Of a DNA stretch of 64,000 nt, positions 3,049-61,873 are shown piece by piece. Position 1 is the stretch's first letter. The number at the start of each line of letters is the position of its first letter. The translations under genes and the position numbers were made by a program. The stretch is from Escherichia coli (GTDB taxonomy: Bacteria > Pseudomonadota > Gammaproteobacteria > Enterobacterales > Enterobacteriaceae): NCBI RefSeq assembly GCF_044647545.1, contig NZ_CP172818.1; one strand, given 5' to 3'. Under the pieces are notes generated by a model. The model did not search any database. It worked only from the letters and a program-made list of their open reading frames with translations, and was not told the origin of the DNA.

Positions 3049-4308
3049 ATGACACGGGCCGTGAAACCGCGCAGGTTTGCAATCAGGCCCATCATCTACG
3101 CCAGCGTTCTGAGCGCTGGCGTATTGTTGTGCGCCTTTTCCGCCCACGCGGATGAGCGTGACCAACTCAAATCCATTCAGGCTGACATCGCCGCGAAAGA
3201 GCGCGCGGTACGCCAAAAGCAACAACAACGCGCAAGCCTGCTCGCACAATTGAAAAAGCAGGAAGAGGCGATATCTGAAGCCACTCGCAAACTGCGCGAA
3301 ACGCAAAATACGCTCAATCAACTCAATAAACAGATTGATGAGATGAACGCGTCGATTGCCAAACTGGAGCAGCAAAAAGCCGCCCAGGAGCGCAGCCTCG
3401 CCGCGCAACTGGATGCCGCGTTTCGTCAGGGTGAACATACCGGTATTCAGCTGATTCTCAGCGGTGAAGAAAGCCAGCGTGGGCAGCGCTTACAGGCTTA
3501 TTTCGGCTATCTCAACCAGGCGCGACAAGAAACCATTGCTCAGTTGAAACAAACGCGTGAAGAAGTCGCTATGCAGCGTGCCGAACTGGAAGAGAAACAG
3601 AGCGAGCAACAAACGCTTTTATATGAGCAGCGCGCCCAACAGGCGAAGCTGACCCAGGCGTTGAGCGAGCGTAAAAAGACGCTGGCAGGGCTGGAGTCTT
3701 CCATCCAGCAAGGTCAGCAACAGTTGAGCGAGCTGCGCGCCAACGAATCCCGCCTGCGTAACAGCATTGCCCGTGCGGAAGCTGCGGCGAAAGCGCGTGC
3801 TGAACGAGAAGCGCGTGAGGCCCAGGCGGTTCGCGACCGCCAGAAAGAAGCGACGCGCAAAGGCACCACCTACAAGCCGACCGAAAGCGAAAAATCGCTG
3901 ATGTCCCGAACTGGTGGCCTGGGTGCGCCGCGTGGTCAGGCATTCTGGCCGGTTCGCGGGCCGACGCTGCATCGCTATGGTGAACAGCTACAGGGCGAAC
4001 TACGCTGGAAAGGAATGGTTATCGGTGCCTCTGAAGGTACTGAAGTTAAAGCGATTGCCGACGGCCGGGTGATTCTGGCTGACTGGCTGCAAGGCTACGG
4101 TCTGGTGGTGGTGGTTGAGCACGGTAAAGGCGACATGAGTCTTTACGGCTATAATCAGAGCGCACTGGTGAGCGTTGGTTCGCAGGTTCGCGCGGGCCAG
4201 CCAATTGCACTGGTGGGCAGCAGTGGCGGTCAGGGTCGGCCTTCACTCTATTTCGAAATTCGCCGCCAGGGTCAGGCGGTCAATCCACAGCCGTGGTTGG
4301 GAAGATAA
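3049..4308 (+). CDS. envC: Murein hydrolase activator EnvC (coiled-coil plus LytM/peptidase M23 domain)
   Basis: Trimmed to MTRAVKPRRF start giving 419 aa; signal peptide, long Q/A/E-rich coiled coil, C-terminal LytM-like domain. Confidence 0.92.
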   Translation: MTRAVKPRRFAIRPIIYASVLSAGVLLCAFSAHADERDQLKSIQADIAAKERAVRQKQQQRASLLAQLKKQEEAISEATRKLRETQNTLNQLNKQIDEMNASIAKLEQQKAAQERSLAAQLDAAFRQGEHTGIQLILSGEESQRGQRLQAYFGYLNQARQETIAQLKQTREEVAMQRAELEEKQSEQQTLLYEQRAQQAKLTQALSERKKTLAGLESSIQQGQQQLSELRANESRLRNSIARAEAAAKARAEREAREAQAVRDRQKEATRKGTTYKPTESEKSLMSRTGGLGAPRGQAFWPVRGPTLHRYGEQLQGELRWKGMVIGASEGTEVKAIADGRVILADWLQGYGLVVVVEHGKGDMSLYGYNQSALVSVGSQVRAGQPIALVGSSGGQGRPSLYFEIRRQGQAVNPQPWLGR

Positions 4309-4311
4309 GTT

Positions 4312-5271
4312 TTGTTTCCATTTCGTCGTAACGTTCTTGCATTTGCCGCTCTGTTGGCGCTCTCCTCCCCCGTAATTGCTGGCAAACTTGCCATCGTCAT
4401 TGATGATTTTGGGTATCGCCCGCACAACGAAAACCAGGTGCTGGCGATGCCTTCCGCTATCTCCGTCGCTGTATTACCCGATTCACCGCACGCCAGAGAG
4501 ATGGCGACCAAAGCGCATAACAGCGGTCACGAAGTGTTGATTCATCTCCCGATGGCACCGTTGAGTAAACAGCCGCTGGAGAAAAATACGCTGCGCCCGG
4601 AGATGAGCAGCGACGAAATTGAGCGCATTATTCGTAGTGCGGTCAATAACGTGCCCTATGCCGTGGGGATCAATAACCACATGGGCAGCAAGATGACCTC
4701 TAACCTGTTTGGTATGCAGAAAGTGATGCAGGCGCTGGAGCGTTACAATCTTTACTTCCTCGACAGCGTAACCATCGGTAATACCCAGGCGATGCGCGCC
4801 GCGCAAGGCACTGGCGTGAAGGTGATCAAACGGAAGGTGTTCCTCGACGATTCGCAGAACGAAGCGGACATCCGTGTACAGTTTAATCGCGCAATTGACC
4901 TGGCGCGTCGCAACGGATCAACCATTGCCATTGGGCATCCTCACCCTTCAACGGTACGCGTGCTACAACAGATGGTTTATAACCTGCCGCCAGACATTAC
5001 GCTGGTGAAAGCCAGCAGCTTGCTGAATGAACCGCAGGTTGATACGTCTACACCGCCGAAAAACACTGTGCCCGACGCACCGCGTAATCCGTTCCGTGGC
5101 GTGAAGCTCTGCAAACCGAAGAAACCGCTGGAACCTGTTTATGCTAATCGCTTCTTTGAAGTATTAAGCGAAAGCATCAGCCAGAGCACGCTGATCGTTT
5201 ACTTCCAGCATCAGTGGCAAGGCTGGGGCAAACAGCCTGAAGCGGCGAAGCTTAACGCTAGCGCAAATTAA
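4312..5271 (+). CDS. yibQ: Divergent polysaccharide deacetylase family protein YibQ
   Basis: 319 aa ORF with signal peptide; synteny after envC. Confidence 0.85.
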   Translation: MFPFRRNVLAFAALLALSSPVIAGKLAIVIDDFGYRPHNENQVLAMPSAISVAVLPDSPHAREMATKAHNSGHEVLIHLPMAPLSKQPLEKNTLRPEMSSDEIERIIRSAVNNVPYAVGINNHMGSKMTSNLFGMQKVMQALERYNLYFLDSVTIGNTQAMRAAQGTGVKVIKRKVFLDDSQNEADIRVQFNRAIDLARRNGSTIAIGHPHPSTVRVLQQMVYNLPPDITLVKASSLLNEPQVDTSTPPKNTVPDAPRNPFRGVKLCKPKKPLEPVYANRFFEVLSESISQSTLIVYFQHQWQGWGKQPEAAKLNASAN

Positions 5272-6292
5272 AGGCGCTACGCGTAATGCGATGGTGCGAC
5301 CGCGTTTTGTCGCGCCATTGCCATAAGCGGAAAGACCACAGTAACGCCTGATAACCCACCTTCACGCTGCGCACATTGGTAATCAGGCGCTTATACATAC
5401 CGGAAGTAAATATCTCGGCAATCATCCGTTGGCGGGTAATAATATCCGGCTCTTTGCGCACCGCATGGCAAACACGCAATGCTTCGTAGGTTATTTGCTG
5501 ATGAAATTCCGGATAAATCGTAATTTTGTCAGCATAATTTCGATTTAATTTCTCCAGCAGGCGGGTAATCTTAATATAGTGACGTTGATAATTAAGGTTT
5601 TTGTTCCCTTGTCTGTTCAACCGACTCACTGACGTATTATGCAGATAATATTTATATAATGATTGCTCGGTATATCGCGCACGCAGCGCGTTAAACATAA
5701 ATTCTGTTGTCCAGACAATATCCTGATGATGTAATCCGGCAATAAATTTAATGTTATTTTTAACAATAACATCGCGGCGATAAACCCCCATCCAGACCAC
5801 GTGTGTCCAACGGCGGGAAGAAAGTCCCATCCGCAGCCAGTCCGGACCAGTTAATACACCGGTTGAGCGAAGGCGATCGGTAGGGATGGATTGCCAGGTT
5901 TCACCCGTTTCACGAAAACACCAATCAGCGTTGCACTGCGCCACGTCGAGGTCGTCCTCTAACGCCATGGTCATCAGCGTTTCGTACATGGTGGGATAGA
6001 CCTCATCGTCAGCATCGACAAAAGCGACATATTTTCCCGTTGCCACCTCGATCCCACGATTACGCGCCACCGATGCGCCAGCATTCGCCTGATGCAACAA
6101 ACGAACGTGCGGATAGTTTTCTGCGTAATGCTTTGCTATTTCAACAGAATTATCCGTTGAACCATCGTTAATAATAATGATTTCCAGAGCAGTCCATGTT
6201 TGCGCAATTAAAGATTCCATACAAGTGCGGAAATCATTGCCCGCATTATATAACGGAATAATAACACTAAGTTTATTGGTGCTGTTCATCAT
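5258..6292 (-). CDS. waaH: Family 2 glycosyltransferase WaaH (YibD)
   Basis: 344 aa ORF; N-terminal GT-A motifs (SVIIPLYNAG, DGSTD, DADD); synteny. Confidence 0.85.
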   Translation of the reverse strand: MMNSTNKLSVIIPLYNAGNDFRTCMESLIAQTWTALEIIIINDGSTDNSVEIAKHYAENYPHVRLLHQANAGASVARNRGIEVATGKYVAFVDADDEVYPTMYETLMTMALEDDLDVAQCNADWCFRETGETWQSIPTDRLRSTGVLTGPDWLRMGLSSRRWTHVVWMGVYRRDVIVKNNIKFIAGLHHQDIVWTTEFMFNALRARYTEQSLYKYYLHNTSVSRLNRQGNKNLNYQRHYIKITRLLEKLNRNYADKITIYPEFHQQITYEALRVCHAVRKEPDIITRQRMIAEIFTSGMYKRLITNVRSVKVGYQALLWSFRLWQWRDKTRSHHRITRSAFNLR

Positions 6293-6496
6293 AAATTACC
6301 GACGACCTCTGAAGTTATCCTGACGTTTTACAGGCTTTGTATTAAGAAACTATTAAGCCTGTGAGATATTATTTTTACCGGTGAGAGAGTCACGTCAGGG
6401 TAGAGAGATAATGAGAGCAGCTATATAAGAGATCAGCGCAATTACGATATCTTGATTACACTGACAGGATTTTACATATTTAACGGATTATCCTCA

Positions 6497-6521
6497 GGAA
6501 AAAGGGCTGGAATACCAGCCC
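6497..6521 (-). terminator. Putative rho-independent terminator downstream of tdh (end of kbl-tdh operon)
   Basis: GC stem gggctgg/ccagccc (6504..6521) followed on the minus strand by a T-run, 10 bp after the tdh stop. Confidence 0.5.
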
Positions 6522-6530
6522 TTGTTTGTG

Positions 6531-7556
6531 TTAATCCCAGCTCAGGATAACTTTCCCGGACTGGCCCGAACGCATGGCGTCAAAGCCCTTCTGGAAATCA
6601 TCGATAGAGAAACGATGAGTAATGATCGGCGAAAGATCGAGGCCAGACTGAATCAGCGCCGCCATCTTGTACCAGGTTTCAAACATCTCACGACCGTAAA
6701 TACCTTTAATGAACAAGCCTTTAAAGATCACTTTGGTCCAGTCGATAGACATATCAGACGGTGGAATACCCAGCATCGCAATACGACCGCCGTGGTTCAT
6801 GGTGTCGAGCATGGTACGAAACGCTGGCGGCGCACCGGACATTTCCAGACCGACATCAAAGCCTTCGGTCATGCCCAGTTCTGTCATCACATCATTAAGG
6901 TTTTCTTTCGCGACGTTAACCGCACGGGTGATACCCATTTTACGCGCCAGCTCAAGGCGGTATTCGTTAACATCAGTAATCACCACGTTACGTGCACCAA
7001 CGTGTTTCGCCACCGCCGCAGCCATAATACCTATCGGACCTGCACCAGAAACCAGTACATCTTCGCCCACCAGATCGAACGACAGCGCAGTATGCACGGC
7101 GTTACCGAACGGATCAAAAATGGAAGCCAAATCGTCGGAGATATTGTCAGGGATTTTGAAGGCGTTGAACGCCGGAATCACCAGATATTCGGCGAAGCAG
7201 CCCGGACGGTTAACACCGACACCAGTGGTGTTGCGGCACAGATGGGTACGACCGCCACGACAGTTGCGACAGTGACCGCAAGTGATATGGCCTTCACCAG
7301 ATACGCGATCGCCAATCTTGAAGCCTTTCACTTCCTGACCAATACCTACCACTTCACCGACATATTCATGGCCCACGACCATCGGCACCGGGATGGTTTT
7401 TTGCGACCACTCATCCCAGTTATAGATGTGAACGTCAGTCCCGCAGATGGCTGTTTTACGGATTTTAATCAGCAGATCGTTATGCCCGAGTTCCGGTACA
7501 GGAACGTCGGTCATCCAGATGCCCTCTTCCGCTTTCAGTTTGGATAACGCTTTCAT
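6531..7556 (-). CDS. tdh: L-threonine 3-dehydrogenase
   Basis: 341 aa ORF, zinc-dependent MDR-family motifs ([15 protein letters not shown]); kbl-tdh operon arrangement. Confidence 0.95.
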
Positions 7557-10963: not shown

Positions 10964-11923
10964 ATGCGGGTTTTGATCGTTAAAACATCGTCGATGGGCG
11001 ATGTTCTCCATACGTTGCCCGCACTCACTGATGCCCAGCAGGCAATCCCAGGGATTAAGTTTGACTGGGTGGTGGAAGAAGGGTTCGCACAGATTCCTTC
11101 CTGGCACGCCGCCGTTGAGCGAGTTATTCCTGTGGCAATACGTCGCTGGCGTAAAGCCTGGTTCTCGGCCCCCATAAAAGCTGAACGCAAAGCGTTTCGT
11201 GAAGCGCTACAAGCAGAGAACTATGACGCAGTTATCGATGCTCAGGGGCTGGTAAAAAGCGCGGCGCTGGTGACGCGTCTGGCGCATGGCGTAAAGCATG
11301 GCATGGACTGGCAAACCGCTCGCGAACCTTTAGCCAGCCTGTTTTACAATCGTAAGCATCATATTGCGAAACAGCAGCACGCCGTAGAACGCACCCGCGA
11401 ACTGTTTGCCAAAAGTTTGGGCTATAGCAAACCGCAAACCCAGGGCGATTATGCTATCGCACAGCATTTCCTGACGAACCGGCCTACAGATGCTGGCGAA
11501 TATGCCGTATTTCTTCATGCGACGACCCGTGATGATAAACACTGGCCGGAAGAACACTGGCGAGAATTGATTGGTTTACTGGCTGATTCAGGAATACGGA
11601 TTAAACTTCCGTGGGGCGCGCCGCATGAGGAAGAACGGGCGAAACGACTGGCGGAAGGATTTGCTTATGTTGAAGTATTGCCGAAGATGAGTCTGGAAGG
11701 CGTTGCCCGCGTGCTGGCCGGGGCTAAATTTGTAGTGTCGGTGGATACGGGGTTAAGCCATTTAACGGCGGCACTGGATAGACCCAATATCACGGTTTAT
11801 GGACCAACCGATCCTGGATTAATTGGTGGGTATGGGAAGAATCAGATGGTTTGTAGGGCTCCAAGAGAAAATTTAAATAACCTCAACAGTCAAGCAGTTT
11901 TGGAAAAGTTATCATCATTATAA
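10964..11923 (+). CDS. waaC: LPS heptosyltransferase I
   Basis: 319 aa ORF, GT9; synteny. Confidence 0.93.
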   Translation: MRVLIVKTSSMGDVLHTLPALTDAQQAIPGIKFDWVVEEGFAQIPSWHAAVERVIPVAIRRWRKAWFSAPIKAERKAFREALQAENYDAVIDAQGLVKSAALVTRLAHGVKHGMDWQTAREPLASLFYNRKHHIAKQQHAVERTRELFAKSLGYSKPQTQGDYAIAQHFLTNRPTDAGEYAVFLHATTRDDKHWPEEHWRELIGLLADSGIRIKLPWGAPHEEERAKRLAEGFAYVEVLPKMSLEGVARVLAGAKFVVSVDTGLSHLTAALDRPNITVYGPTDPGLIGGYGKNQMVCRAPRENLNNLNSQAVLEKLSSL

Positions 11924-11932
11924 AGGTAAAAC

Positions 11933-13192
11933 ATGCTAACATCCTTTAAACTTCATTCATTGAAACCTTACACTCTGAAATCATCAATGATTTTAGAGAT
12001 AATAACTTATATATTATGTTTTTTTTCAATGATAATTGCATTCGTCGATAATACTTTCAGCATAAAAATATATAATATCACTGCTATAGTTTGCTTATTG
12101 TCACTAATTTTACGTGGCAGACAAGAAAATTATAATATAAAAAACCTTATTCTTCCCCTTTCTATATTTTTAATAGGCTTGCTTGATTTAATTTGGTATT
12201 CTGCGTTTAAAGTAGATAATTCGCCATTTCGTGCTACTTACCATAGTTATTTAAATACTGCCAAAATATTTATATTTGGTTCTTTTATTGTTTTCTTGAC
12301 ACTAACTAGCCAGCTAAAATCAAAAAAAGAGAGTGTATTATACACTTTGTATTCTCTGTCATTTCTAATTGCTGGATATGCAATGTATATTAATAGCATT
12401 CATGAAAATGACCGCATTTCTTTTGGTGTAGGAACGGCAACAGGAGCAGCATATTCAACAATGCTAATAGGGATAGTTAGTGGCGTTGCGATTCTTTATA
12501 CTAAGAAAAATCATCCTTTTTTATTTTTATTAAATAGTTGCGCGGTACTTTATGTTCTGGCGCTAACACAAACCAGAGCAACCCTACTCCTGTTCCCTAT
12601 AATTTGTGTTGCTGCATTAATAGCTTATTATAATAAATCACCCAAGAAATTCACTTCCTCTATTGTTCTACTAATTGCTATATTAGCTAGCATTGTTATT
12701 ATATTTAATAAACCAATACAGAATCGCTATAATGAAGCATTAAATGACTTAAACAGTTATACCAATGCTAATAGTGTTACTTCCCTAGGTGCAAGACTGG
12801 CAATGTACGAAATTGGTTTAAATATATTCATAAAGTCACCTTTTTCATTTAGATCAGCAGAGTCACGCGCTGAAAGTATGAATTTGTTAGTTGCAGAACA
12901 CAATAGGCTAAGAGGGGCATTGGAGTTTTCTAACGTACATCTACATAATGAGATAATTGAAGCAGGGTCACTGAAAGGTCTGATGGGAATTTTTTCCACA
13001 CTTTTCCTCTATTTTTCACTATTTTATATAGCATATAAAAAACGAGCTTTGGGTTTGTTGATATTAACGCTTGGCATTGTGGGGATTGGACTCAGTGATG
13101 TGATCATATGGGCACGCAGCATTCCAATTATCATTATATCCGCTATAGTCCTCTTACTCGTCATTAATAATCGTAACAATACAATTAATTAA
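11933..13192 (+). CDS. waaL: O-antigen ligase
   Basis: 419 aa polytopic membrane protein, AT-rich codon usage; position after waaC; length equals K-12 WaaL. Confidence 0.9.
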   Translation: MLTSFKLHSLKPYTLKSSMILEIITYILCFFSMIIAFVDNTFSIKIYNITAIVCLLSLILRGRQENYNIKNLILPLSIFLIGLLDLIWYSAFKVDNSPFRATYHSYLNTAKIFIFGSFIVFLTLTSQLKSKKESVLYTLYSLSFLIAGYAMYINSIHENDRISFGVGTATGAAYSTMLIGIVSGVAILYTKKNHPFLFLLNSCAVLYVLALTQTRATLLLFPIICVAALIAYYNKSPKKFTSSIVLLIAILASIVIIFNKPIQNRYNEALNDLNSYTNANSVTSLGARLAMYEIGLNIFIKSPFSFRSAESRAESMNLLVAEHNRLRGALEFSNVHLHNEIIEAGSLKGLMGIFSTLFLYFSLFYIAYKKRALGLLILTLGIVGIGLSDVIIWARSIPIIIISAIVLLLVINNRNNTIN

Positions 13193-13206
13193 GAATAAAC
13201 AAGTTT

Positions 13207-13232
13207 AAGAAGTGAGTTAAAACTCACTTCTT
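13207..13232. terminator. Perfect palindrome between convergent waaL and waaU (putative bidirectional terminator)
   Basis: aagaagtgagtt-aa-aactcacttctt inverted repeat overlapping the waaU stop codon. Confidence 0.4.
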
Positions 13233-14297
13233 ATCTATACAACTTAATCTCTTTACTGAATTAGTTAAAGTTTCAGTATCGATATCTTTTACCGTATATG
13301 TTGGGGATACTATTTGTATAGATTTATGATGATTCGGGGACCAAATTAAATGCGAGGGATATTCCGGAGTACGTGAATTAGGGTAAAATGCAAGCGTTGG
13401 TTTATGATAAGCCGCAGCGATATGAACAAGAGCTGTATCAACAGAAATGACAAAATCACTATACTTGGTCAACGCAACGGTATAAATAAACTCATCAAAT
13501 GGTAGTGTTTCGATTTCAAGTATTGGTATTGTCAATAAATCTTGCGGTAACCCGGTAAATATAATCCGATAATTTTCAAAGTGTGTTTTCACTTCTTGAT
13601 ATATAACTTTTATTTGCTCAAACGTAAGACGGCATATTTTTTTTGCACCTAATGGATTAATAATGACTATTCTTGTATCTCCAATAAATTCTTTTATTTT
13701 ATCTTCAACATCTACTGGTAAATGCAAGTCGTAGTTGGTGGAAAATTTACCCTCACCATAAATATGCTTCAGTATTTCTATTGCTCGTGTACTCATATGT
13801 TCTTTTAAACATTCATCGTGGGGATGGTAAAATGAATAGTAACGCTTATACCAATGATCAAAACCCAGAATGTAAGAATCTTTTAAACTTGATAATATTA
13901 AGCTATGCTTAAATGAGGGCATAGTTTCAAAGGGGTCTAATACAATATCGAACTGTAAATCCCGCAGATGCTTACATAGAGTAAGCATTTCAAGAAAACC
14001 GGTTGATTCTTTAATACAGAACTCAAATATATTTTTATTATTAGAGAGAAATTCCCCACCCTTTCTATTTGTGAGAAGAGTTATTTTAACCCCTTTACTA
14101 TAAAGTTCACGATAAATCGAACTTAATACAATTAGATCACCAAGTTTATTATTATCATGAATAATAAGGCATGATTTAACTTGTGCTGGATCTGTAATTT
14201 GATTATTTATTTTATTACGAAATAAAAAAGAAAGGAAATTAATCTTGATTTTGTTTATATAAAATCTTTTCTTTTTGTGAAAAGTTCCTAAGCGCAT
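13224..14297 (-). CDS. waaU: LPS core heptosyltransferase IV (RfaK/WaaU, K-12 type)
   Basis: 357 aa ORF, GT9-like; last gene of waaQ operon; length equals K-12 WaaU. Confidence 0.85.
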   Translation of the reverse strand: MRLGTFHKKKRFYINKIKINFLSFLFRNKINNQITDPAQVKSCLIIHDNNKLGDLIVLSSIYRELYSKGVKITLLTNRKGGEFLSNNKNIFEFCIKESTGFLEMLTLCKHLRDLQFDIVLDPFETMPSFKHSLILSSLKDSYILGFDHWYKRYYSFYHPHDECLKEHMSTRAIEILKHIYGEGKFSTNYDLHLPVDVEDKIKEFIGDTRIVIINPLGAKKICRLTFEQIKVIYQEVKTHFENYRIIFTGLPQDLLTIPILEIETLPFDEFIYTVALTKYSDFVISVDTALVHIAAAYHKPTLAFYPNSRTPEYPSHLIWSPNHHKSIQIVSPTYTVKDIDTETLTNSVKRLSCIDKK

Positions 14298-14329
14298 TTT
14301 TATACCATATTATTTTAGTTTCAGGATGA

Positions 14330-15181
14330 TTAATTAGCATAAGAATCGGTTGAAGTTCTATATTGCATTTTTTTTCTTGTCATATCTTTTGATTCTTCTG
14401 CACTGATGTCTTGAAGTTTAATAAATGGAATTACATCGTAAGAAATAGCTGTATCATCTGATAAATTATAAATATTAATATCTTTTACATTATCATGCAT
14501 AAAACGAAAAAATGGCAATATTTTGAATAAATCCCTACTTAATTCCGAGGGCATGGGATTTTTATTCTCATCATAGAAACGAGAACAGCTACCCGTTAAA
14601 TCAAGACCAGAACAAATAATCCGCGCATACTTAAGTGAATATGCGATTTGAATTGCAGCAAAGGCAATAGTATGGCATGAGCAATAACCAAGACTAATGT
14701 CCTTGCAAAATCCAACCAGACGACCTTTTTTAGACAACGGTACAGAGATCAGCAGTTCTTTGTGAATCTGTCTCAAAATATTAAATTTAATCTTCTTTAT
14801 AAAACCACCTTTTTCCCGACGGTAAAAGGACCGTAATACGAGGCAGTTCTGGAGGATATAAAGTTTATCTTCTTTGGAAGCGTGTTCATAAACGTCAACG
14901 TTTACTATGGTATAACGACTTCTCTGGCTAAATTTATAAAAATCATCACGACGCTGATGTAAAAATCGGACATCTGTAAGTACATATATAAAAGGAACGA
15001 TATTATTACTTAACAGATATTGCGCAGAACCATTGACAGCAATAATATCCTTTGTTCGTAATACTGACAAAGGTGTTTTTTGCGATGTAGGGCCCGAAAG
15101 AAAAATAATAACATCATCAGATATTTTATTTTCAATCAGGTTTTCAACATCTTTTTTGTCAATGTATCTAATATTCTTCAT
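14330..15181 (-). CDS. waaZ: LPS core biosynthesis protein WaaZ (KdoIII-associated)
   Basis: 283 aa ORF; position and length as in K-12 waa cluster. Confidence 0.8.
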   Translation of the reverse strand: MKNIRYIDKKDVENLIENKISDDVIIFLSGPTSQKTPLSVLRTKDIIAVNGSAQYLLSNNIVPFIYVLTDVRFLHQRRDDFYKFSQRSRYTIVNVDVYEHASKEDKLYILQNCLVLRSFYRREKGGFIKKIKFNILRQIHKELLISVPLSKKGRLVGFCKDISLGYCSCHTIAFAAIQIAYSLKYARIICSGLDLTGSCSRFYDENKNPMPSELSRDLFKILPFFRFMHDNVKDINIYNLSDDTAISYDVIPFIKLQDISAEESKDMTRKKMQYRTSTDSYAN

Positions 15182-15251
15182 GATAAACCTGTGAAATAAA
15201 TAACTCCGCTTAAAACTGTCCTGGTGAAGACATGTAATTGTGGGATTTTTT

Positions 15252-15950
15252 TTAGCGCGCTGGTTTCCCTTTCAAACGCCGCATAAAATTGCGCATTTTT
15301 TTACGATATACTAAAAGATAATAGCCTAGATCTCTAATCTCATTTTTAATACCGTAATGACGCTCTAAGTCAATACGATCTTTCGCTTTACGCTGCGCTG
15401 AAGCACGCTTTCCGGAGAGATCGATAATTCGAACCTCACCATTTTTTATAATGAAGTTACCACGATGGGGGTCGCCAGAAACCATGCCATGTTGATGTAA
15501 GGCATTAATTGATTGCTGAATTTTATTTTTTAGCGCATCATCAATATCGGGCATATCACACAACTCTATGCCATCAATATACTCGATGATCATGATATAA
15601 GTATGGACAAAACGTAAGGTTTTCCGTTCAGCCAATAAATAAAAGTCATTGAGTGTATTTAACCCTTCATTTCGTACTTTTTGGGTTTGCTCAAAAAGGC
15701 GTTCGTAATAATCACCTTTTAACAGAGACTTAAAGAAACGTTCGTTACGCTTAACTTTCGGAGAAAAAACCTTAAGAATCAATTTACCGTAATCGGTATC
15801 AATAAGCATAACTTTTGTATCATCAATAGAACGAAAAACCTTGATGATATTTATATTATAAGACAAGAAGTCATTTAATACATTGAGGTACTTTGAATTG
15901 TTTTCATCGGTAAAAACAACCAAGTCTTTGATCTTGCTCTTCTGAATCAT
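15252..15950 (-). CDS. waaY: LPS core heptose(II) kinase
   Basis: 232 aa ORF, kinase-like (HGDPHRGNF); position and length as K-12 WaaY. Confidence 0.85.
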   Translation of the reverse strand: MIQKSKIKDLVVFTDENNSKYLNVLNDFLSYNINIIKVFRSIDDTKVMLIDTDYGKLILKVFSPKVKRNERFFKSLLKGDYYERLFEQTQKVRNEGLNTLNDFYLLAERKTLRFVHTYIMIIEYIDGIELCDMPDIDDALKNKIQQSINALHQHGMVSGDPHRGNFIIKNGEVRIIDLSGKRASAQRKAKDRIDLERHYGIKNEIRDLGYYLLVYRKKMRNFMRRLKGKPAR

Positions 15951-15967
15951 AATAAACCAGTTAAATG

Positions 15968-16984
15968 TTATTTACGGTAATATTTTCGGCAAAGATAACA
16001 GACTCCTGCTATAATTCCTGAGATATAATGATGTTGCACTAAAAGATGTTTATATCTTTTTTTAAATTCAATAATTGATTTCGCATCTCGTGGAGAGTCA
16101 TCTTTCCAGGGGGAATTTTCTAAAGCTATTTTATAGTATTTTACCGATGGATAAATTGCCCATTTGTGCCACGGTTTAGTTGCACCTGTATAATGAATAA
16201 GAAGAGTACTTTCTGTAATCAGCTTTTTATAGTTTTGATGTGTTTTGTCTTTTAATTCACTTTTAATTGTATAAATTGTATTGTACTCACGAGGCAAAAA
16301 TAATGTCATCCCTTTCAGTAAGACATTCATAACATCCTGATCAGGGTATTTATAAACATTATCTTTACTCATAAGAATAGACAACGCTTTTTCTGTTAGT
16401 TTTGCGTCAGCCCATTTTTTTAAGTCTAAATAAACGACACCGGAATTAAAGTACTGCCCAAGTAATTCAGGATCAGACAACCTGGATACCGCCTTTTCTT
16501 GCATTGGCTCAACATCTTTAACAACAGCAGCAACCGCTCCATTTAAACCCAGATGTAATAGTTGGCTAATATCGCCTTTACAAACAACATCTGCATCAAG
16601 ATAAAGCAAACGATCAAGCGTTAAACCCAATAATTGAAATGCAAATAAACGGAAGTACATTGCTCTTGACCAGACCTGTGTACAAGGCAAGCACTGGAGC
16701 TTATCAGTGTTAATTCTATATAACGTGATTCTTAATTGGTTTTGCTCTGCAAGCTTTGCAATTTTTTGAAAAAAACCATCATTATAAACATCAGCAATAA
16801 TATAAAAATCAAGATTAATATGTCGATTATTTAGGACAATTGATGTGATGGAAACACCTACACCATCAAGATAATTAGCATCGACACCATAGGCAACATT
16901 TAAACATTCAGAAGTATTTATATTAGCTAGCCGAAAATCCCAGGCTTTAACTTTATCTATCTCTATGGCAGGAAATGAGTCCAC
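15968..16984 (-). CDS. waaJ: LPS alpha-1,2-glucosyltransferase (GT8; RfaJ, called WaaR in Heinrichs nomenclature)
   Basis: 338 aa ORF, GT8 family with DxD; position and length as K-12. Confidence 0.85.
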   Translation of the reverse strand: MDSFPAIEIDKVKAWDFRLANINTSECLNVAYGVDANYLDGVGVSITSIVLNNRHINLDFYIIADVYNDGFFQKIAKLAEQNQLRITLYRINTDKLQCLPCTQVWSRAMYFRLFAFQLLGLTLDRLLYLDADVVCKGDISQLLHLGLNGAVAAVVKDVEPMQEKAVSRLSDPELLGQYFNSGVVYLDLKKWADAKLTEKALSILMSKDNVYKYPDQDVMNVLLKGMTLFLPREYNTIYTIKSELKDKTHQNYKKLITESTLLIHYTGATKPWHKWAIYPSVKYYKIALENSPWKDDSPRDAKSIIEFKKRYKHLLVQHHYISGIIAGVCYLCRKYYRK

Positions 16985-17023
16985 AATGCTACCCTTATAT
17001 CATTACTTTATAGTTTCCCAGTT

Positions 17024-18043
17024 TTAATGCTTTATCTTTTCAATAAAATAAAAAAGATAGTTGCTAAATCCTTTTAGATATCTATGCTTTTTAAGCATAT
17101 GTTTTGCGCTATATCTTAATTGATTGCTATTGTTCGGTTTCAGCAACGCCGTATTCTTCCATGGCGAAGCATTTTTTGCCTCCATAAAGGCTTGTGATAC
17201 AGGATAATCCCAGGCCCAATCATGCCAGGGCTTGGTTGGCCCGATATAATGGATAAAAATAGTATCGTTGGTTACTGGGTTTATAAAGCTTTCTTTGAGT
17301 TGATAATTTAAGCTGAACTGGGTGTTATATTTAATATCAGCGAAAATAAGTTTATCCGCCAGCAACATATTTAACACATCCTGATCAGGATGTGTTATTT
17401 TTTTGATTATTTCTGGCTCATTTAGCATTGCAATAGCTCGTGCAGAAACCTGCTGAGCCGCCCATTGGGCAGTATTAATCAATAAAAAACCGGAGTTAAA
17501 GTAACCTTTAGCAATTCCCGCAACACCTAACGAATGGGCGCGTTTTTCCCACCAGTCAGCTTGCCCTTCTGTAACAACCATTGCGACTTTATCGTCAGGA
17601 AATGAGAAATTAATTAGTGGCTCAATAGTCCCCTGACAAATGATATCTGCATCCAGATAAAGGACTTTAGGCGCCTTATTAATAAAGTAATCTGCAATAA
17701 CAAAACGAAAATATATTGCATGAGTCCAATTCTTAGTGCTAGGCAATGAGCGCAGTCGATCACCATTAATCAGATATATTTTAATTCTGGTTTTATACTG
17801 CAACGCCAGGGCATCAAAATACTTACGATCATCATCACCAAAATAATCAGTAAAAATATGGAAACACAATCGACTTCCTTCATTATATTTTAATATTGAA
17901 GCAATCGAAATTCCGCAACCAAATAGAAAGTTTTTGTCAGTTCCATAAGCGATGTCCAGACAAAGATTTTCTGTTTCTACTTTATGATCATAATCAATAA
18001 CTGAATTAAGAAACTCAGTTTCCTGGAAAAACACCTGCTGCAT
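17024..18043 (-). CDS. waaO: LPS alpha-1,3-glycosyltransferase (GT8; RfaI/WaaO)
   Basis: 339 aa ORF, GT8 family, paralogous to waaJ; position and length as K-12. Confidence 0.85.
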   Translation of the reverse strand: MQQVFFQETEFLNSVIDYDHKVETENLCLDIAYGTDKNFLFGCGISIASILKYNEGSRLCFHIFTDYFGDDDRKYFDALALQYKTRIKIYLINGDRLRSLPSTKNWTHAIYFRFVIADYFINKAPKVLYLDADIICQGTIEPLINFSFPDDKVAMVVTEGQADWWEKRAHSLGVAGIAKGYFNSGFLLINTAQWAAQQVSARAIAMLNEPEIIKKITHPDQDVLNMLLADKLIFADIKYNTQFSLNYQLKESFINPVTNDTIFIHYIGPTKPWHDWAWDYPVSQAFMEAKNASPWKNTALLKPNNSNQLRYSAKHMLKKHRYLKGFSNYLFYFIEKIKH

Positions 18044-19122
18044 TATTTCCTCCGGGAAATAGCAGAAATAATTACCTTATGTAATCTATCGTAATACTTC
18101 GATTGGTAAAATTCATCGATCGACGCAGGAATTTTTTCATGTTCGATATGAATTTCACCTGCTATATATTTATTTAGAAGAGTTACAAAACCAGCAATAT
18201 CTCCCGGTTGATACAGATGGCCATTGACATCAGGTTGAATAATGTCAGCAGGCCCGGAGACACAATCGGCACTGATACAAGGAATCCCCCACGACAAGGC
18301 TTCAAGTAGGGTCATTGGGAAACCTTCAAAAGATGACGTGAGCAATAACGCACTCACTTTTTCAATATCTTGCTGGACCAATTCCCAGGGATATTGTTGC
18401 CAACCATACCAGACAATTCGATCATCAATATTTAATTCTCTACCATAAGCCTGGCATTTTTCGAAATCGGAGCCATCACCCAATACATGGAGTTTCCAGT
18501 TACCTTTCGCTTGTGATAAGCCATCAAGCAGGTCTTTAACTCTTTTCTGGCCTTCAAATTTCATACGCCCAACATAAATAAACGTTGCCGTTTCACCTTC
18601 CTCGGGCGCGGGAATGACTGAGTCTTTAGTTTCGACGGGATTAAAAATAACATTTATCGTCGATTCTGCTACACCTCGATTAATCATTTGCTGTTTAATG
18701 CCAGAGCTGATTGCTAAATGATAGTCGGCACAGGTGATATATTCAGCATGTTTTTTGTGATCTAAAGAAAAATGTGGCCATGAAAATACTGGCATATCAA
18801 TTCCTGATTTTTTACGTGCTTTTGCGGCAAACAGGCAGGAGATCACATCAATACAAATAACGATATCTGGTTGGTACTCCTGAAGCCATTTACTTAGAGC
18901 ATGAATATGTTTCGCCCGACGCAAAAAACCTAAACGAATATTGGAAAATGAACATGAGTATTTAATACCTTCCAGCCATCCCTTATCCATTTTGTCATTA
19001 CGACAAAAGAAAAACATTTCACTTTGGATATGTTGTTGCCTGAAGGTAGTAATAACATCACGGATGACAGTTTCCATGCCGCCAAATCCAGAAACAGCTT
19101 CGCCGATAAACGCTATTTTCAT
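18043..19122 (-). CDS. waaB: LPS alpha-1,6-galactosyltransferase (GT4)
   Basis: ORF 18043..19152 trimmed to MKIAFIG start giving 359 aa; GT4 family; position as K-12. Confidence 0.85.
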   Translation of the reverse strand: MKIAFIGEAVSGFGGMETVIRDVITTFRQQHIQSEMFFFCRNDKMDKGWLEGIKYSCSFSNIRLGFLRRAKHIHALSKWLQEYQPDIVICIDVISCLFAAKARKKSGIDMPVFSWPHFSLDHKKHAEYITCADYHLAISSGIKQQMINRGVAESTINVIFNPVETKDSVIPAPEEGETATFIYVGRMKFEGQKRVKDLLDGLSQAKGNWKLHVLGDGSDFEKCQAYGRELNIDDRIVWYGWQQYPWELVQQDIEKVSALLLTSSFEGFPMTLLEALSWGIPCISADCVSGPADIIQPDVNGHLYQPGDIAGFVTLLNKYIAGEIHIEHEKIPASIDEFYQSKYYDRLHKVIISAISRRK

Positions 19123-19165
19123 AGAAACTCTCATTAATTGAGTAAAACTCACTGTTTTAACGGTT

Positions 19166-20101
19166 TTATTTGTCTATAAAATCAGAAACAATCGTTGACA
19201 TCATTTTATCTGGACTGAATTTATATAAACTATCATAATCCATTGGTTTAACAGATGAGTTAATAAAATACTCTAACTTATCCCAATCATCATGACCTAT
19301 TATAAAAAAGCGAGATTCACTATAGATTTCTGAACCAAATACATTTATATTATTAGTAATTAATTTTTTATTGAAAAATAGTGCCTCAAGTATACGAAGA
19401 GTCCAGCCAGATTGGTTTTCTTTGGTTATATCAACAATTATATTAGCATTTAATGTTCTTCTAATATTCTCTTCATAAGATATTTGTTTTTCAATCAAAT
19501 ACTTTGAAGTCGTAGATGATGTCTTATCTTTGACAACATTAAAATCTAGCTTACATCCTAGTGTTGTTAATCTCTCGGCTAACTCATTAATTATTTGAAG
19601 ACGCCCTTTATCACGACCAAGGAAAAAACATATTGGCTGGCTGTTATTTTTGTCAGATAAACTATAATTTCTAATTTCATCCATTCCTATAGGAAAAAAT
19701 TGTTCTATTGCCTTGATCTTTTCATTCCCTATAAATCTATGCTCAAAATCATATATAATATCGAAATAATTCGCGTTATCAAGAATAAAATCTTCGCCAA
19801 CAGTATTTCTTAGAAGCAAAACTTTATGACAGTTAATATTTTTTAATATTTGTTTATTGATACCTTTATTAACAACACTGTCATTAATGATAATTATGTC
19901 ATCTTTTTTAATATCATTGAGGTAATGCTTGATGAATAATCGCCCCAGCCATGCATTATCCATCCCTATTTTTGATATTTTTTTATTAATCCAGTTATAT
20001 TTTTTTGGTGTTGTTATATTTTTTATCTTGTACTTTTTTTTCAGGTACTGAATCATTTTTAATTCATAATCTGCAACCCAATTTATAAAATAAATAGTCA
20101 T
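19166..20101 (-). CDS. waaS: LPS core biosynthesis protein WaaS
   Basis: 311 aa ORF, very AT-rich; position and length as K-12 WaaS. Confidence 0.8.
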
Positions 20102-20137
20102 AATAAAGTTAGTTCCAGTACATACTAATAAATATTT

Positions 20138-20935
20138 TTATAATCCTTTGCGTTGTGTTCGCTCTTTAATACGCTCGGCCTTAACGCTTGCCATGTTCAA
20201 TAAATTCTGTTCAAGAGACAATATTTTGCGTAAAGGCATCCCAAAATACACTTTCATAAACCGCCAGATATCCCGCTGAGTCAGGCCGATATTCATCGAA
20301 GAAAAATAAAGCCCAATAAGATCTTTATCGCGCCAACGACGTGGAACGCGCGTGCGAAGCTGCGCCCGGTGCAGGTCAATTACTGAAATTTTTAACTCCT
20401 CTTCCTTACCGGAAAAAGGCAAGTGCAGCAGGAAATGACAGATATAACAGTCACGGTGGTTAATGCCCGCAGCATGCATATCGCGCACCATCGTCGCGAC
20501 ACGCTTAATAAGCATACGCTTTACGCGAACATCTGGTGGGTTGGTCGCCCAGTCAGCACAGTAATCTTCCAGACTGATGGTTGGTGTCAGATCTTCGGTA
20601 ATAATAAACGAGGTTCTGGTCAGCGGATTAATGCCTTTTTCGCCGAATGCCACCCCATACATAGTATCAACGCCGACATCCCGCAGTCGATGAATCGCAT
20701 TCCATTCGCGGTCTGCGCCTAATACTGGCATCCGCAATGAGAGTAAATTTTTGATTATCTCTTTCAGGGTCGTGCCGCGATGCCATTTGAGAAAATAGCT
20801 TTTGCCCGCCATTTCAAAGCGCAGAGTGCGGCGAGTTTCCAGTTCACGAAATACCTCACCCTGCAAGGTTTTAACTTCCTCAAAAGGATCTTTACCGCGC
20901 CATAACGTGGCAAACGGCTCTTTAAGTTCAACCAT
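20138..20935 (-). CDS. waaP: LPS core heptose(I) kinase
   Basis: Trimmed to [14 protein letters not shown] start giving 265 aa; kinase motifs ([11 protein letters not shown]). Confidence 0.9.
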
Positions 20936-30070: not shown

Positions 30071-30108
30071 TATGACGTCCGGCATGATTATTCATCCAGC
30101 GAATATTT

Positions 30109-33857: not shown

Positions 33858-36246
<2,389 letters not shown>

Positions 36247-55856: not shown

Positions 55857-55894
55857 ACCGCTACAACTACTGACCAACGCTTCTTTACCTGATA

Positions 55895-57085
55895 TCAGGA
55901 TTTCTTCATTTTCACCTTTGCGGTGACCAATAACGCCGTCAGCAACATCAATGTGCCGGACAACATCAACGGCGAAGTCAGACCAATATTATCCAGCGCA
56001 TAACCGCCGATTGCCGCGCCACAGGTATTAGCAAGCTGAATAACCGCCACCTGAATAGACCCGGCTTTTTCTGCCTGATCGGCCAGTGAGCGGGTGATCC
56101 ACGTTGACCAGCCGACAGGAACCAATGCAAAAGTTAGCCCCCAGATAATCGCCACGCCGGTAGCAACGATTTTATCGCTTCCCCACAACGTCAGCACCAA
56201 CGCACTCACAGCCAGTATTAACGGCGCGCCTGCTAAGGCCAGTTTTACCGAACGTTTAAGAATGAACGACGAAAGCGACGTACCAATAAAGCTGGCGATA
56301 CCAAAACTCAACAGCACCAGCGTTAAGCCATCCACGCCGAATCCCGCCAGGTTCATATACACCGGGCGAATATACGTGAAGAAAGCAAACTGCCCGGCGA
56401 AAGACATGAAGATGGCGATCATCCCTGCCATCACACCCGGACGTTGTAATAAGCGGAAAGTATTTTGTTTCTGATGCGAGGGTTCGCCTGGCAGCGAAGG
56501 CAATGATTTGATAATCCAGAAAATACACAGCACGCCCATCACCGCCGCCGCATTAAAGACATTGCGCCAACCGATAAGCTCGCCTAAAAAACTGCCCAAC
56601 GGTGCGGCAATCACCAGCGCAATAGAAACCGCGCCGAAGATCACCGACAGCGCCTTCGGCACCGTACGCGGCGGTACCAGACGCATGGTCAGCGACGCCG
56701 ACATCGCCCAGAACCCACCCAGCGCCAGCCCCAGACAGGCACGACCGATTAAAAGCAAACTGAATGAGTTAGCAAAGGAAACCAGCAAGCAGGAGAGCGT
56801 CAGCAAAACGGCAAACAAAATAACAACATAGCGGCGGTCAGTGGCCTGAATGGTCTGGGTAATAAACAAACTGGCAAACATTGCCACAAAGGCGGTCACG
56901 GTCACCGATTGCCCGGCAACCCCTTCCGAAATGCCTAAATCCTGGGCCATTGGCGTCAACAAACTGACGGGCAAAAACTCAACGATAATCAGACAGGCGA
57001 CGCAAAACGCCACCGAGAAAACGGCTGACCAGTTCGGTCGGGTGATGGCATCCGCGCCGCGGTTTTCGGCAATAAATTCACTCAT
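55895..57085 (-). CDS. nepI: Purine ribonucleoside efflux pump NepI (MFS)
   Basis: ORF 55895..57133 trimmed to [19 protein letters not shown] start giving 396 aa. Confidence 0.9.
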
Positions 57086-57349
57086 GGTGTTACCCGTGGC
57101 ATGTTTCAGGGGAAAAGCCGACCACTTTAACATTGAAATGTGTGACGCATTTAACGTTTTTGCAACTTTTACGGTGTTGTGGGAAAAGTTCGAGGCTGCT
57201 CGAAGAAATAAAAATCATAGGGCAAGGTGATATGCATTTTCGCAATGGGGTTGGGAATAAGGGATAAAGTATTCATTGTGATATACTTTAATAACAGGAT
57301 CTCAACGATATACGCGTGTTTAAAACCAAATATTTTGCAAGGGAAGCCA

Positions 57350-57990
57350 GGTCTCAGCAAAAAAGAAAAAAAGTTGCCGGTTTAGAAACGGAACAAGGTA
57401 AAGCTGATGTACTTGGTGGTGGCGTTTTTAAAAAGCGCCTTCACCGAAATCGTGAGCGTGCAATTATTCTGCAAAAGGGGAAAAAAATTGTTTTTACACT
57501 TTTTTATATAAAAAAAAGGATATGTCAAAAATAAATAGCAAGAAACGGCTTGGTTTCCGTAAACTCCAAAACATTTTCCCCTCCCTACCAAAACCCAAAC
57601 AAAAAAAAAGATTAAAACAAAAAAACAAACAGAAATCCCCTAGACCCGAAAAAAAAAAATAAAAAACCCCCGCTTTTGGGCATTCCCAACCCCGCGGCCC
57701 GGGTTTCCCCCCCCCATGCTTTTTCTCCCCAAAAAAAACGTACTTTTACAAAACCCCCCCCACCAGCACGCAAAAACTACAACCCGGTGAAAAAAAAAAA
57801 ACACGGGAAAAAAAAAAAAGGAAGCCACCCCCCTTCGCCCCCATCCCAAAACCAGCGTTTCAACAGCACAAAAAAAGGAAAAGGGGCGCAAACCCCCCAG
57901 GGGTTCTTTAAAAATCCCCAGCATGGTGGAAAAAAAAGGGGGGGGGGGGGGGGAGTAAAAAAAAAAGAAAAAAGTCATACCAGCCCCAAT
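57350..57990. repeat. Low-complexity homopolymer-rich tract (A8-A12, C5-C8 and a G19 run); probably sequencing or assembly artifact
   Basis: Direct inspection: successive long poly-A, poly-C and poly-G runs, strand-asymmetric composition, no coherent coding frame; unlike any other intergenic region in the window. Confidence 0.6.
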
Positions 57991-58062
57991 ACCGGATGCG
58001 GCGTGAACGCCTAATCCACCCTACAGGTCAGGCGCGGTCTGTAGGCTGATAAGACGAAGCGG
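57991..58062. repeat. Degenerate REP-like (BIME) palindromic element
   Basis: accggatgcggcgtgaacgcctaatccaccctacaggtcaggcgcggtctgtaggctgataagacg resembles the canonical REP gccggatgcggcgtgaacgccttatccggcctaca but with several mismatches. Confidence 0.45.
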
Positions 58063-58064
58063 TT

Positions 58065-58517
58065 TTAATGCAGCCAGTGAACGCCCTCGGCAGGCTGAAA
58101 GAACGCGTTATAGCGCATCTGAAAAGCATTAATATCCTGCATTTCAGGTTCGGTTTCGCGCAGAAAACCCAGCGCCAGCCTGACCTGAGCATCAGTAATC
58201 GGCGCGGCAAGGCGGGCTTTTTGTAAAATCCGATGCCATTGCAGCATGTTCTGTTCGCTACCATCGACAATGACAATTTGCCAGATGAGCAACACCTGCG
58301 CGGCGTTTTGCAGGTGCGACTCATCCGGGCGATGCAAATAACGTAAAAATTCGTCACCGGCTGACTTTCCCATTTGATCGACCATCGACTCCACGGGTAC
58401 GACATCGATGTTCAGCCGATCGCTGAGACGGCGAATCGCTTTTCTGGCCCCGGATGTCAGCACCCGAAAACCAATCACAAACACTACCGCCAGCGTGGCG
58501 AGCATTATCCAGATCAT
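58065..58517 (-). CDS. yicN: DUF1198 family protein YicN
   Basis: ORF 58065..58544 trimmed to MIWIMLATLAVVFVIG start giving 150 aa. Confidence 0.85.
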   Translation of the reverse strand: MIWIMLATLAVVFVIGFRVLTSGARKAIRRLSDRLNIDVVPVESMVDQMGKSAGDEFLRYLHRPDESHLQNAAQVLLIWQIVIVDGSEQNMLQWHRILQKARLAAPITDAQVRLALGFLRETEPEMQDINAFQMRYNAFFQPAEGVHWLH

Positions 58518-58569
58518 GAGTTCTCCTGCGTAATCAGAACTCATAATATCTGGAAACCCTCGCCAGTTA

Positions 58570-59904: not shown

Positions 59905-60078
59905 TTTTTTGTCCATTGGAGGAGATTTAATCCCTTGCTTTTGTAAAACAAATGACAACAACGGTTCAGTGATAATTATCACATTTCAATTGCACATTAA
60001 TGGATATTCTTTAATAATCTCGCGACGTTTCTTTATGATAAATAATAATCAAATTGATAAAATCAAAATGAGAAAAAT

Positions 60079-61845: not shown

Positions 61846-61846
61846 T

Positions 61847-61873
61847 AAAAAAAAGCCCGGCGTCATGCCGGGC
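61847..61873 (-). terminator. Rho-independent terminator of uhpT
   Basis: Minus-strand gcccggcatgacgccgggc hairpin followed by T8, 19 nt after the uhpT stop. Confidence 0.7.

Follow-up and report, generated by a model that had tools for sequence, protein, structure and literature searches.

Results

Two genes meeting tail to tail

All positions given here refer to the window, the 64,000-nt stretch of Escherichia coli contig NZ_CP172818.1 that was analysed as a whole. The features at issue lie near its beginning:

4312..5271, plus strand: coding sequence of yibQ (sddA), 319 aa; from the ORF list, RefSeq and Pfam PF04748
5258..6292, minus strand: coding sequence of waaH (yibD), 344 aa; from the ORF list, RefSeq and Pfam PF00535
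5258..5271, both strands: convergent overlap CTAGCGCAAATTAA, read directly from the sequence; the last four sense codons plus the stop of each gene

In YibQ, residues 28-238 form a Polysacc_deac_2 domain (PF04748, 4.9e-76). The protein is SddA, which deacetylates denuded peptidoglycan strands in the periplasm; its gene is the last of the operon in which it is co-expressed with envC (PMC12440217). Residues 239-319 are predicted to be disordered, and a truncation comprising residues 24-238 is fully active, so that this C-terminal region is dispensable for activity (PMC12440217). The overlap thus falls at the end of a dispensable YibQ tail. WaaH belongs to the GT2 family of glycosyltransferases (Glycos_transf_2, PF00535, 4.4e-39) and is annotated as a GT2 UDP-glucuronate:LPS(HepIII) glycosyltransferase.

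On the plus strand, yibQ ends in ...AAG CTT AAC GCT AGC GCA AAT TAA, with its stop at 5269-5271, and on the minus strand waaH, read from 6292 down to 5258, ends in ...GCC TTT AAT TTG CGC TAG, with its stop at 5260-5258. By sequence and ORF list, the two opposite-strand genes share 14 nucleotides at their 3′ ends. Base 5257, the first of the GCT that opens the last four sense codons of yibQ, lies just outside the shared stretch, within which the codon positions of yibQ and waaH are paired 1-1, 2-3 and 3-2. Neither ORF contains an earlier in-frame stop.

Both boundaries are placed identically in the RefSeq/PGAP annotation of FDAARGOS_497 and of K-12 MG1655. Over positions 4800-5800 the sequence agrees fully (100%) with FDAARGOS_497 and to 96.8% with K-12 MG1655, and this interval was matched in 5424 of 5426 complete E. 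coli genomes; an 81-nt query spanning the junction was matched in 5379 of these 5426, with both genes annotated beneath it in all matches listed. That both members are genuine genes is evident from their Pfam domains, from orthologs with the same ends in many genera, from the biochemistry of SddA (PMC12440217) and from the presence of the junction in thousands of genomes. The overlap is real and already part of the standard E. coli annotation. Our literature search found no paper naming yibQ and waaH together.

A shorter case of the same geometry lies further along the window:

34472..34475, both strands: yicG/ligB overlap, the bases CTAA being common to the stops TAA (yicG) and TAG (ligB); from the ORFs and RefSeq

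Here the yicG ORF ends at 34475 and that of ligB at 34472, and RefSeq agrees on an overlap of 4 nt. Both overlaps had been reported in the first-pass annotation of this DNA: the names and coordinates of the 14-nt pair are borne out by the sequence, the ORF list and RefSeq, and the 4-nt pair by its ORF ends, the shared CTAA and RefSeq alike.

How ordinary is such an arrangement? The matching strain has eight convergent junctions in its annotated 64 kb, spaced by -14, +47, +38, +45, -4, +33, +52 and +3 nt; two of the eight overlap, and one more has a spacing of 3 nt. E. coli counts 75 convergent pairs among its 663 overlapping adjacent gene pairs (PMC4161906), and convergent pairs make up ~7% of well-characterised prokaryotic overlaps, this being the orientation least prone to misannotation (PMC2478687). 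Antisense to waaH, the reading frame of yibQ contains stops at 24 of 345 codons (7%), with a mean open run of 14 codons; given this density, a yibQ stop four codons into waaH is unremarkable. Each gene, moreover, has a back-up stop beyond the one in use:

5284..5286, plus strand: back-up in-frame stop TAA of yibQ, five codons past the stop in use
5252..5254, minus strand: back-up in-frame stop TAA of waaH, two codons past its TAG

The yibQ/waaH overlap is no greater than expected by chance.

The overlap in other genera

For comparison we collected 80 YibQ loci from species-representative genomes and located in each the yibQ stop, any relative of waaH, and tdh. Wherever a sampled genome carries a waaH of the E. 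coli type (77-98% identity), the overlap measures exactly 14 nt. These taxa span seven genera and comprise E. coli, E. albertii, Escherichia sp. MOD1-EC7003, Leclercia UBA7405, Salmonella enterica diarizonae, Enterobacter ENT03, Silvania confinis, Cedecea colo and four Citrobacter genomes (Citrobacter sp. Cu233, C. youngae CCUG 30791, C. amalonaticus ku-bf3 and C. sedlakii). An apparent exception, a gap of 216 in MOD1-EC7003, proved spurious: it came from a partial tblastn segment, and the junction there is likewise -14. The overlap is hence kept well beyond very close relatives, at exactly 14 nt in seven genera and as a scar, described below, in two Citrobacter genomes that have no waaH. An ortholog alignment revealing an earlier in-frame stop in either ORF had been named in the first-pass annotation as the finding that would overturn the overlap; the alignment instead returned the same 14 nt in all seven genera.

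Among waaH-like genes at 64-76% identity, the spacing is -4 in Kluyvera, UBA5654 and Pseudescherichia, 0 in the C. freundii group and Kluyvera ascorbata, and +14 in Superficieibacter sp. The waaH-like gene of Pseudocitrobacter is set apart by +72/+113 nt, with palindromic sequence inside the spacer, and in Superficieibacter electus yibQ carries a 152-nt extension that resembles the product of a frameshift.

Depending on the genus, the slot between yibQ and tdh is occupied by different GT2 glycosyltransferase genes, packed tightly to yibQ. In genomes without waaH, it often holds an unrelated GT2 gene of 265 aa whose distance to yibQ is just as small (-4 in Raoultella, +5 in K. pneumoniae, 0 in Lelliottia). 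Two Citrobacter genomes have lost waaH except for its last ~17 nt (CTAACGCAAATTAAGCG), which survive as the tail and stop codon of yibQ, after which homology ends; this remnant is a deletion scar, and the arrangement is older than the loss of waaH. Damage to waaH with yibQ left intact is frequent, as exemplified by WWCOL-256 (an ISVsa5 insertion), ETEC1748 (182 nt deleted right after the yibQ stop) and MOD1-EC7003 (an internal deletion). Taken together, the equally tight junctions with unrelated GT2 genes and the frequent loss of waaH speak against the two genes being obligatory regulatory partners.

A stop codon supplied by the partner gene

Two features bear on how yibQ comes to end where it does:

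5227..5268, plus strand: hypervariable YibQ tail GKQPEAAKLNASAN, following QWQGW, in the predicted disordered C-terminal region
5267..5272, minus strand: waaH codons TTT AAT (Phe-Asn); the antisense of their T-T/A is the yibQ stop TAA

The conserved core of YibQ ends in QWQGW in all genera. Between 1 and 14 residues follow, with nearly no similarity across genera (GKQPEAAKLNASAN, GNTSSPSTINANAD, GRSPNGKEISEG, GKIAAPKNVSAKTD and others), and tblastn alignments of YibQ end at residues 305-308 in most genera. Comparing the two tails directly, those of YibQ are almost wholly different between genera, at 12 or 14 aa, as opposed to the conserved tail of WaaH, whose C-terminus reads ..R[KS]A[LF]NL[RG] across genera. 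The same holds within E. coli for strain AH21F008, in which all differences in the 81-nt junction query fall inside the YibQ tail, upstream of waaH.

Positions 2 and 3 of a waaH [L/F/I] codon, together with position 1 of the following Asn codon, read in antisense as the yibQ stop. In a codon alignment, all nine distinct taxa with the 14-nt overlap use NTY-AAY at this place (TTT, five times CTT, CTC and ATT), with TAA or TGA opposite; Salmonella is the case in which yibQ ends in TGA. The stop-making waaH codon is always NTY in these taxa and never CTG, the codon found there in Pseudescherichia, where yibQ stops earlier. Extra synonymous constraint was not detected at the waaH 3′ end, where synonymous-codon identity is 0.51-0.57 compared with a gene mean of 0.51. 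The constant NTY may reflect some selection on the position of the stop, in which case the overlap might not be fully passive.

A double hairpin at the boundary

The boundary coincides with two predicted hairpins on the plus strand:

5255..5284, plus strand: hairpin H1, an imperfect inverted repeat (ACGCTAGCGC ... GCGCTA-C-GCGT) from the MFE fold, with the yibQ stop in its 9-nt loop
5288..5321, plus strand: hairpin H2, a 13-bp stem (GCGAUGGUGCGAC / GUCGCGCCAUUGC) with loop CGCGUUUU from the MFE fold; candidate protective stem-loop at the 3′ end of the yibQ mRNA

The plus-strand RNA of 5250-5330 folds at -40.5 kcal/mol in both the MFE and the centroid structure (z -3.95), none of 200 shuffles being as stable, and is the most structured of 48 segments over both genes; on the minus strand the fold is less notable (z -2.0). 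None of 1000 synonymous recodings that leave both proteins intact reaches the stability of the native sequence (z -4.05), and among 15 control segments in waaH one is equally over-structured. Neither hairpin has the U tract of an intrinsic terminator, H1 being followed by AAUGCG and H2 by CAUAAGCG, and in the 150 nt after the hairpins the C/G ratio is 1.15-1.40. What lies upstream of the termination zone, described below, is hence a stable stem-loop with no U tract, succeeded by sequence richer in C than in G. In a general model, Rho-terminated mRNAs are trimmed back to a protective stem-loop that has no U tract and is followed by C>G sequence (PMC6061677). By analogy, the double hairpin may protect the 3′ end of the envC-yibQ mRNA in Escherichia.

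Only Escherichia shows a strong structure (z -3.3 to -4.3). Weaker folds occur in S. diarizonae (-2.9) and Silvania (-2.1), and there is no such signal in Citrobacter Cu233, C. youngae and Cedecea colo, all of which have the same 14-nt overlap. The cross-genus consensus contains a single invariant 5-bp core, GCGAC/GUCGC, dictated by the WRD and Ser codons. With this core and a covariation term of -0.07 in RNAalifold, we rejected a conserved cross-genus RNA structure; the 73% of paired cells in the structure alignment carries a bias, E. coli being the source of the structure. The sole mildly unusual feature of the junction is the double hairpin, which is specific to Escherichia and favoured by codon choice.

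Termination of the convergent transcripts

A consensus scan of positions 4200-6700 yielded five terminator-like sites, with 3.0 expected, and no intrinsic terminator at the yibQ/waaH junction for either gene. Over the same interval, an Rfam search (E <= 1) returned only two meaningless matches to eukaryotic lncRNAs, near the tdh terminator. Two features relate to termination:

5195..5176, minus strand: weak terminator-like hairpin from the consensus scan, 6 bp followed by GCUUUCGCUU; inside yibQ, 63 nt downstream of the waaH stop
5272..5600, plus strand: Rho termination stretch of envC-yibQ transcripts, antisense to waaH (PMC7815308), with a reported peak at ~5595

We rejected the first as a real terminator: the hairpin is weak, its surroundings fold like shuffled sequence (z -1.07), and it is probably a chance match.

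The second was located by converting MG1655 coordinates (window position = MG1655 position - 3783789), anchored on two 3′-end sequences of PMC7815308. That study reports a Rho region at MG1655 3789384 on the plus strand, classed as 'antisense waaH' (PMC7815308, Supplementary file 2), with upstream/downstream DirectRNA-seq counts of 106/28 in untreated cells and 187/274 with bicyclomycin (Rho score 5.55, p 1.8e-15). It corresponds to window position ~5595, 324 nt beyond the yibQ stop, at a resolution limited by that study's 800-nt windows. Downstream read-through on the plus strand thus increases under Rho inhibition in the published K-12 data (PMC7815308). A second Rho region, on the minus strand at MG1655 3790042 (PMC7815308), corresponds to window position ~6253, 39 nt into waaH; few minus-strand transcripts should therefore reach the overlap in LB. 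Term-seq under three conditions, in which waaH is poorly expressed, places no 3′ end on either strand within MG1655 3788800-3789399 (PMC7815308); the envC-yibQ operon is weakly expressed.

These data show that, in K-12, plus-strand transcripts from yibQ enter the region antisense to waaH and are ended there by Rho within roughly 300 nt. The first-pass annotation had held that the overlap leaves no room for separate terminators, and had pointed to RNA-seq as a means of detecting antisense read-through. The former holds insofar as the junction offers neither intergenic space nor an intrinsic terminator, but terminators need no intergenic space, as the Rho region within antisense waaH illustrates; the latter does reveal read-through into waaH on the plus strand, cut off by Rho (PMC7815308).

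Expression of the two genes in low phosphate

In low phosphate, RNA-seq finds waaH 4.3-fold (log2 +2.1) higher in the wild type than in ΔphoB (~12,700 vs ~3,000 normalised counts), and envC in this same comparison, which covers one condition, not significantly changed (log2 -0.4, q 0.19); yibQ is not among the ~2000 genes listed with q <= 0.57 (PMC10294691). Under low phosphate, waaH RNA (~12,700) amounts to ~5 times that of envC (~2,200) (PMC10294691). No PhoB ChIP peak is found at waaH (PMC10294691), and our search for a Pho box upstream of waaH gave no match with up to three mismatches anywhere in the window. The earlier suggestion that convergent transcription could couple the expression of yibQ and waaH is thereby left unsupported rather than refuted, envC being unchanged at a 4.3-fold change of waaH, and the data point, indirectly, to coupling as at most a weak effect.

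Discussion

Why do yibQ and waaH overlap? We consider it probable that the overlap is passive: two real genes share a short stretch at their 3′ ends, an arrangement both common and already annotated. Once past QWQGW, the yibQ frame crosses ~28 nt of fast-evolving sequence and then runs four codons into the end of waaH, where its stop (TAA, or TGA in Salmonella) exists because waaH encodes a conserved [Leu/Phe/Ile]-Asn as NTY-AAY. Purifying selection on the WaaH C-terminus (..KA[LF]NL[RG]) would be what chiefly sets the length of the overlap, with the YibQ residues in the overlap presumably free to vary within the predicted disordered, dispensable C-terminal region.

The overlap belongs to a class that is already known and well described, and it matters little. 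Short convergent overlaps in prokaryotes were reportedly the subject of earlier work by Rogozin et al. in 2002 and by Johnson and Chisholm in 2004. As in the documented examples (PMC4161906, PMC2478687), which arise when a stop codon moves or is lost, two real genes on opposite strands share a few codons at their 3′ ends, one of them continues to the next stop codon within its partner, the arrangement is kept among relatives, and the extended tail evolves fast. Nothing essential sets the present case apart: at 14 nt it exceeds the 4-nt stop-on-stop type seen at yicG/ligB, and, unlike in that type, it is a conserved codon pair of waaH, not the waaH stop codon, that provides the yibQ stop.

As for the yibQ transcript, its end resembles Rho-dependent 3′ ends with protective stem-loops (PMC6061677, PMC7815308), in that a U-rich terminator is missing, a stable stem-loop follows the stop, the sequence thereafter is mildly C>G and read-through further downstream is sensitive to bicyclomycin. 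It differs in that the yibQ 3′ UTR lies wholly inside a convergent coding sequence and in that no steady-state 3′ end is reported at the stem-loop in the data searched. On this model, 3′-5′ exonucleases in Escherichia would halt at the double hairpin (5255-5321) and leave a protected 3′ end on the envC-yibQ mRNA. Rho, and not the overlap, would keep the two transcription units largely independent, with any coupling being weak.

Alternatively, the overlap could be a regulatory device, in which collisions of RNA polymerase or antisense pairing cause induction of waaH upon phosphate starvation to lower envC-yibQ, or the reverse. Several observations are compatible with this: the missing intergenic space and intrinsic terminator, plus-strand transcripts entering antisense waaH (PMC7815308), the ~5-fold excess of waaH over envC RNA in low phosphate, and a nominally lower envC level (log2 -0.4) in the wild type, where waaH is higher. 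Antisense transcription is, in addition, reported to be able to tune expression in E. coli (PMC4731013), and the geometry at yibQ/waaH likewise lets the polymerases and transcripts of both genes meet. The yibQ/waaH pair differs from such antisense interference, however, in that the available RNA-seq reveals no significant effect, the envC change having a q of 0.19 and yibQ being missing from the genes listed with q <= 0.57. Read-through on the plus strand is halted by Rho within a few hundred nt, minus-strand transcription in LB is terminated by Rho ~39 nt into waaH so that little of it reaches the overlap, unrelated GT2 genes sit equally tight, and waaH is frequently lost or broken next to an intact yibQ. 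On balance, we regard a regulatory role of the overlap as unlikely.

A different function could be ascribed to the double hairpin of Escherichia, namely that of a selected insulator at which polymerases arriving from both sides pause and collide when phosphate starvation activates waaH, thereby blocking antisense read-through into envC-yibQ. We give this idea little credence. If true, the insulator would constitute a collision-type or Rho-assisted bidirectional boundary that lies wholly within coding sequence and needs no intergenic DNA, next to a cell-division operon, envC-yibQ (sddA), whose dosage matters for the separation of daughter cells.

Overlapping bidirectional terminators driven by collisions of RNA polymerase were reportedly described by Ju et al. 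in 2019. Were H1 and H2 such an element, pausing together with head-on and trailing collisions would end both transcripts at defined, overlapping 3′ ends. The junction shares with this class the convergent gene pair, a strong boundary hairpin foldable on both strands (z -3.95 on the plus and -2.0 on the minus strand) in place of a canonical terminator, and the missing U tract (Wang et al., bioRxiv 10.1101/2022.10.23.513370); codon choice, too, favours the structure. Yet the terminators of Wang et al. are Rho-independent and produce sharp paired 3′ ends (bioRxiv 10.1101/2022.10.23.513370), whereas plus-strand termination after yibQ depends on Rho, with a bicyclomycin-sensitive drop in LB, and Term-seq reports no defined, sharp 3′ ends at the junction. 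Read on the minus strand, the hairpins precede the waaH stop and fall in translated sequence, and the structure is not kept in most genera with the same overlap. While a collision-type terminator is possible where both genes are active, we judge it very improbable that H1 and H2 form a terminator of this class. That the overlap is an error of annotation or sequencing, with one of the genes ending earlier, has next to no probability and is refuted by sequence and ortholog comparison: although 3′-end extension by a frameshift or the loss of a stop is a known source of spurious convergent overlaps (PMC2478687), and the 152-nt extension of yibQ in Superficieibacter electus looks like such a case, the stops here are unambiguous, no earlier in-frame stop exists, and the junction recurs in 5379 complete genomes and the same overlap in seven genera.

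A passive overlap still has practical consequences. Deletions of or insertions into waaH (yibD), as well as constructs that use its 3′ end, can change the stop codon and the 3′ UTR of yibQ/sddA. Since sddA affects daughter-cell separation and the 3′ end of waaH holds its stop, knock-out designs should spare positions 5258-5321. Given that one of the partners is inducible by phosphate starvation, yibQ/waaH also offers a handy test case for termination without intergenic DNA, be it by Rho or by collision. The locus also represents a clean natural example of a stop codon derived from the conserved codons of a partner gene, complete with a deletion scar.

A variable cassette site between yibQ and tdh

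Enterobacteriaceae differ in what they carry in the slot separating yibQ from tdh, a variable cassette site, as seen at six fetched loci encoding YibQ relatives (L036, L074, L024, L044, L052 and L058). Its contents are either of two waaH subtypes, a GT2 gene of 265 aa, another of 316 aa, an ORF of 340 aa that weakly resembles WaaH, or a pair of + strand genes; in some cases the slot is empty. Every GT2 gene examined in the slot lies within a few nucleotides of the yibQ stop.

We find waaH to be recurrently inactivated, at four loci, and in all four cases yibQ and its stop are undamaged:

L003 (WWCOL-256): ISVsa5 insertion in waaH
L086 (ETEC1748): 182-nt deletion in waaH, equivalent to window ~5290-5471
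L008 (Escherichia sp. MOD1-EC7003): internal deletion in waaH
L010 (C. amalonaticus AUH): apparent disruption of waaH, judged from a partial best WaaH match

In two Citrobacter loci (Citrobacter sp. Awk 4 and R56; L011, 4448-4470, and L013), waaH is missing, with its last ~17 nt persisting as the tail and stop of yibQ. The tdh terminator hairpin, bordered by one A tract and one T tract, follows ~100 nt downstream and could here serve both genes.

Other convergent junctions

In Superficieibacter electus (L028, 3709-3860), yibQ extends 152 nt into waaH because its frame differs from that of the sister species, where a spacer of +14, with a small hairpin in it, separates yibQ from waaH. The extension could be genuine, through loss of the stop or a frameshift, or it could be an error of assembly. 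Another very tight junction is found in FDAARGOS_497, the best-matching E. coli strain:

L005, 10245-10249: yicL/nlpA convergent junction, stops separated by only 3 nt

A structured segment inside waaH

The + strand RNA at 5940-6020 (81 nt), antisense to waaH, is more structured than its synonymous recodings (z -4.6), an excess equal to that of the hairpins at the yibQ/waaH junction. The terminator scan also flagged a site on the opposite strand:

5943..5926, - strand: terminator-like site

The 5′ side of waaH

Upstream of the waaH start, by ~200 nt and on the same strand, lies the terminator of tdh:

6502-6523, - strand: tdh terminator hairpin, bounded by A-rich sequence at one end and by T residues at the opposite end

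A Term-seq 3′ end has been reported nearby, at MG1655 3790287 (window 6498). Published DirectRNA-seq further places a - strand Rho-dependent termination region in LB at MG1655 3790042 (window ~6253), merely ~39 nt inside the waaH ORF, with upstream/downstream counts of 95/20 in untreated cells and 154/187 with bicyclomycin (PMC7815308). This suggests that transcripts of waaH, or read-through from tdh, end prematurely under non-inducing conditions, and the region could be a 5′ regulatory attenuator.

Searching the waaH upstream region (window 6293-6530) for the Pho box consensus with up to three mismatches returned no match, consistent with the published absence of a PhoB ChIP signal at waaH; its RNA is nevertheless PhoB-dependent (PMC10294691).

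Mosaic structure relative to FDAARGOS_497

Compared with FDAARGOS_497, the window is a mosaic. The outer waa core region (window 11863-20241) does not align to this strain. Between slmA and pyrE, FDAARGOS_497 carries a reverse-transcriptase family gene that the window lacks; only 25 nt (30072-30096) occupy that position. After position 47016, ~6.7 kb of the FDAARGOS_497 record, in which sugar-isomerase, aldolase and PTS genes are annotated, have no counterpart at this point of the window, and the search gave no alignment for window 55858-64000.
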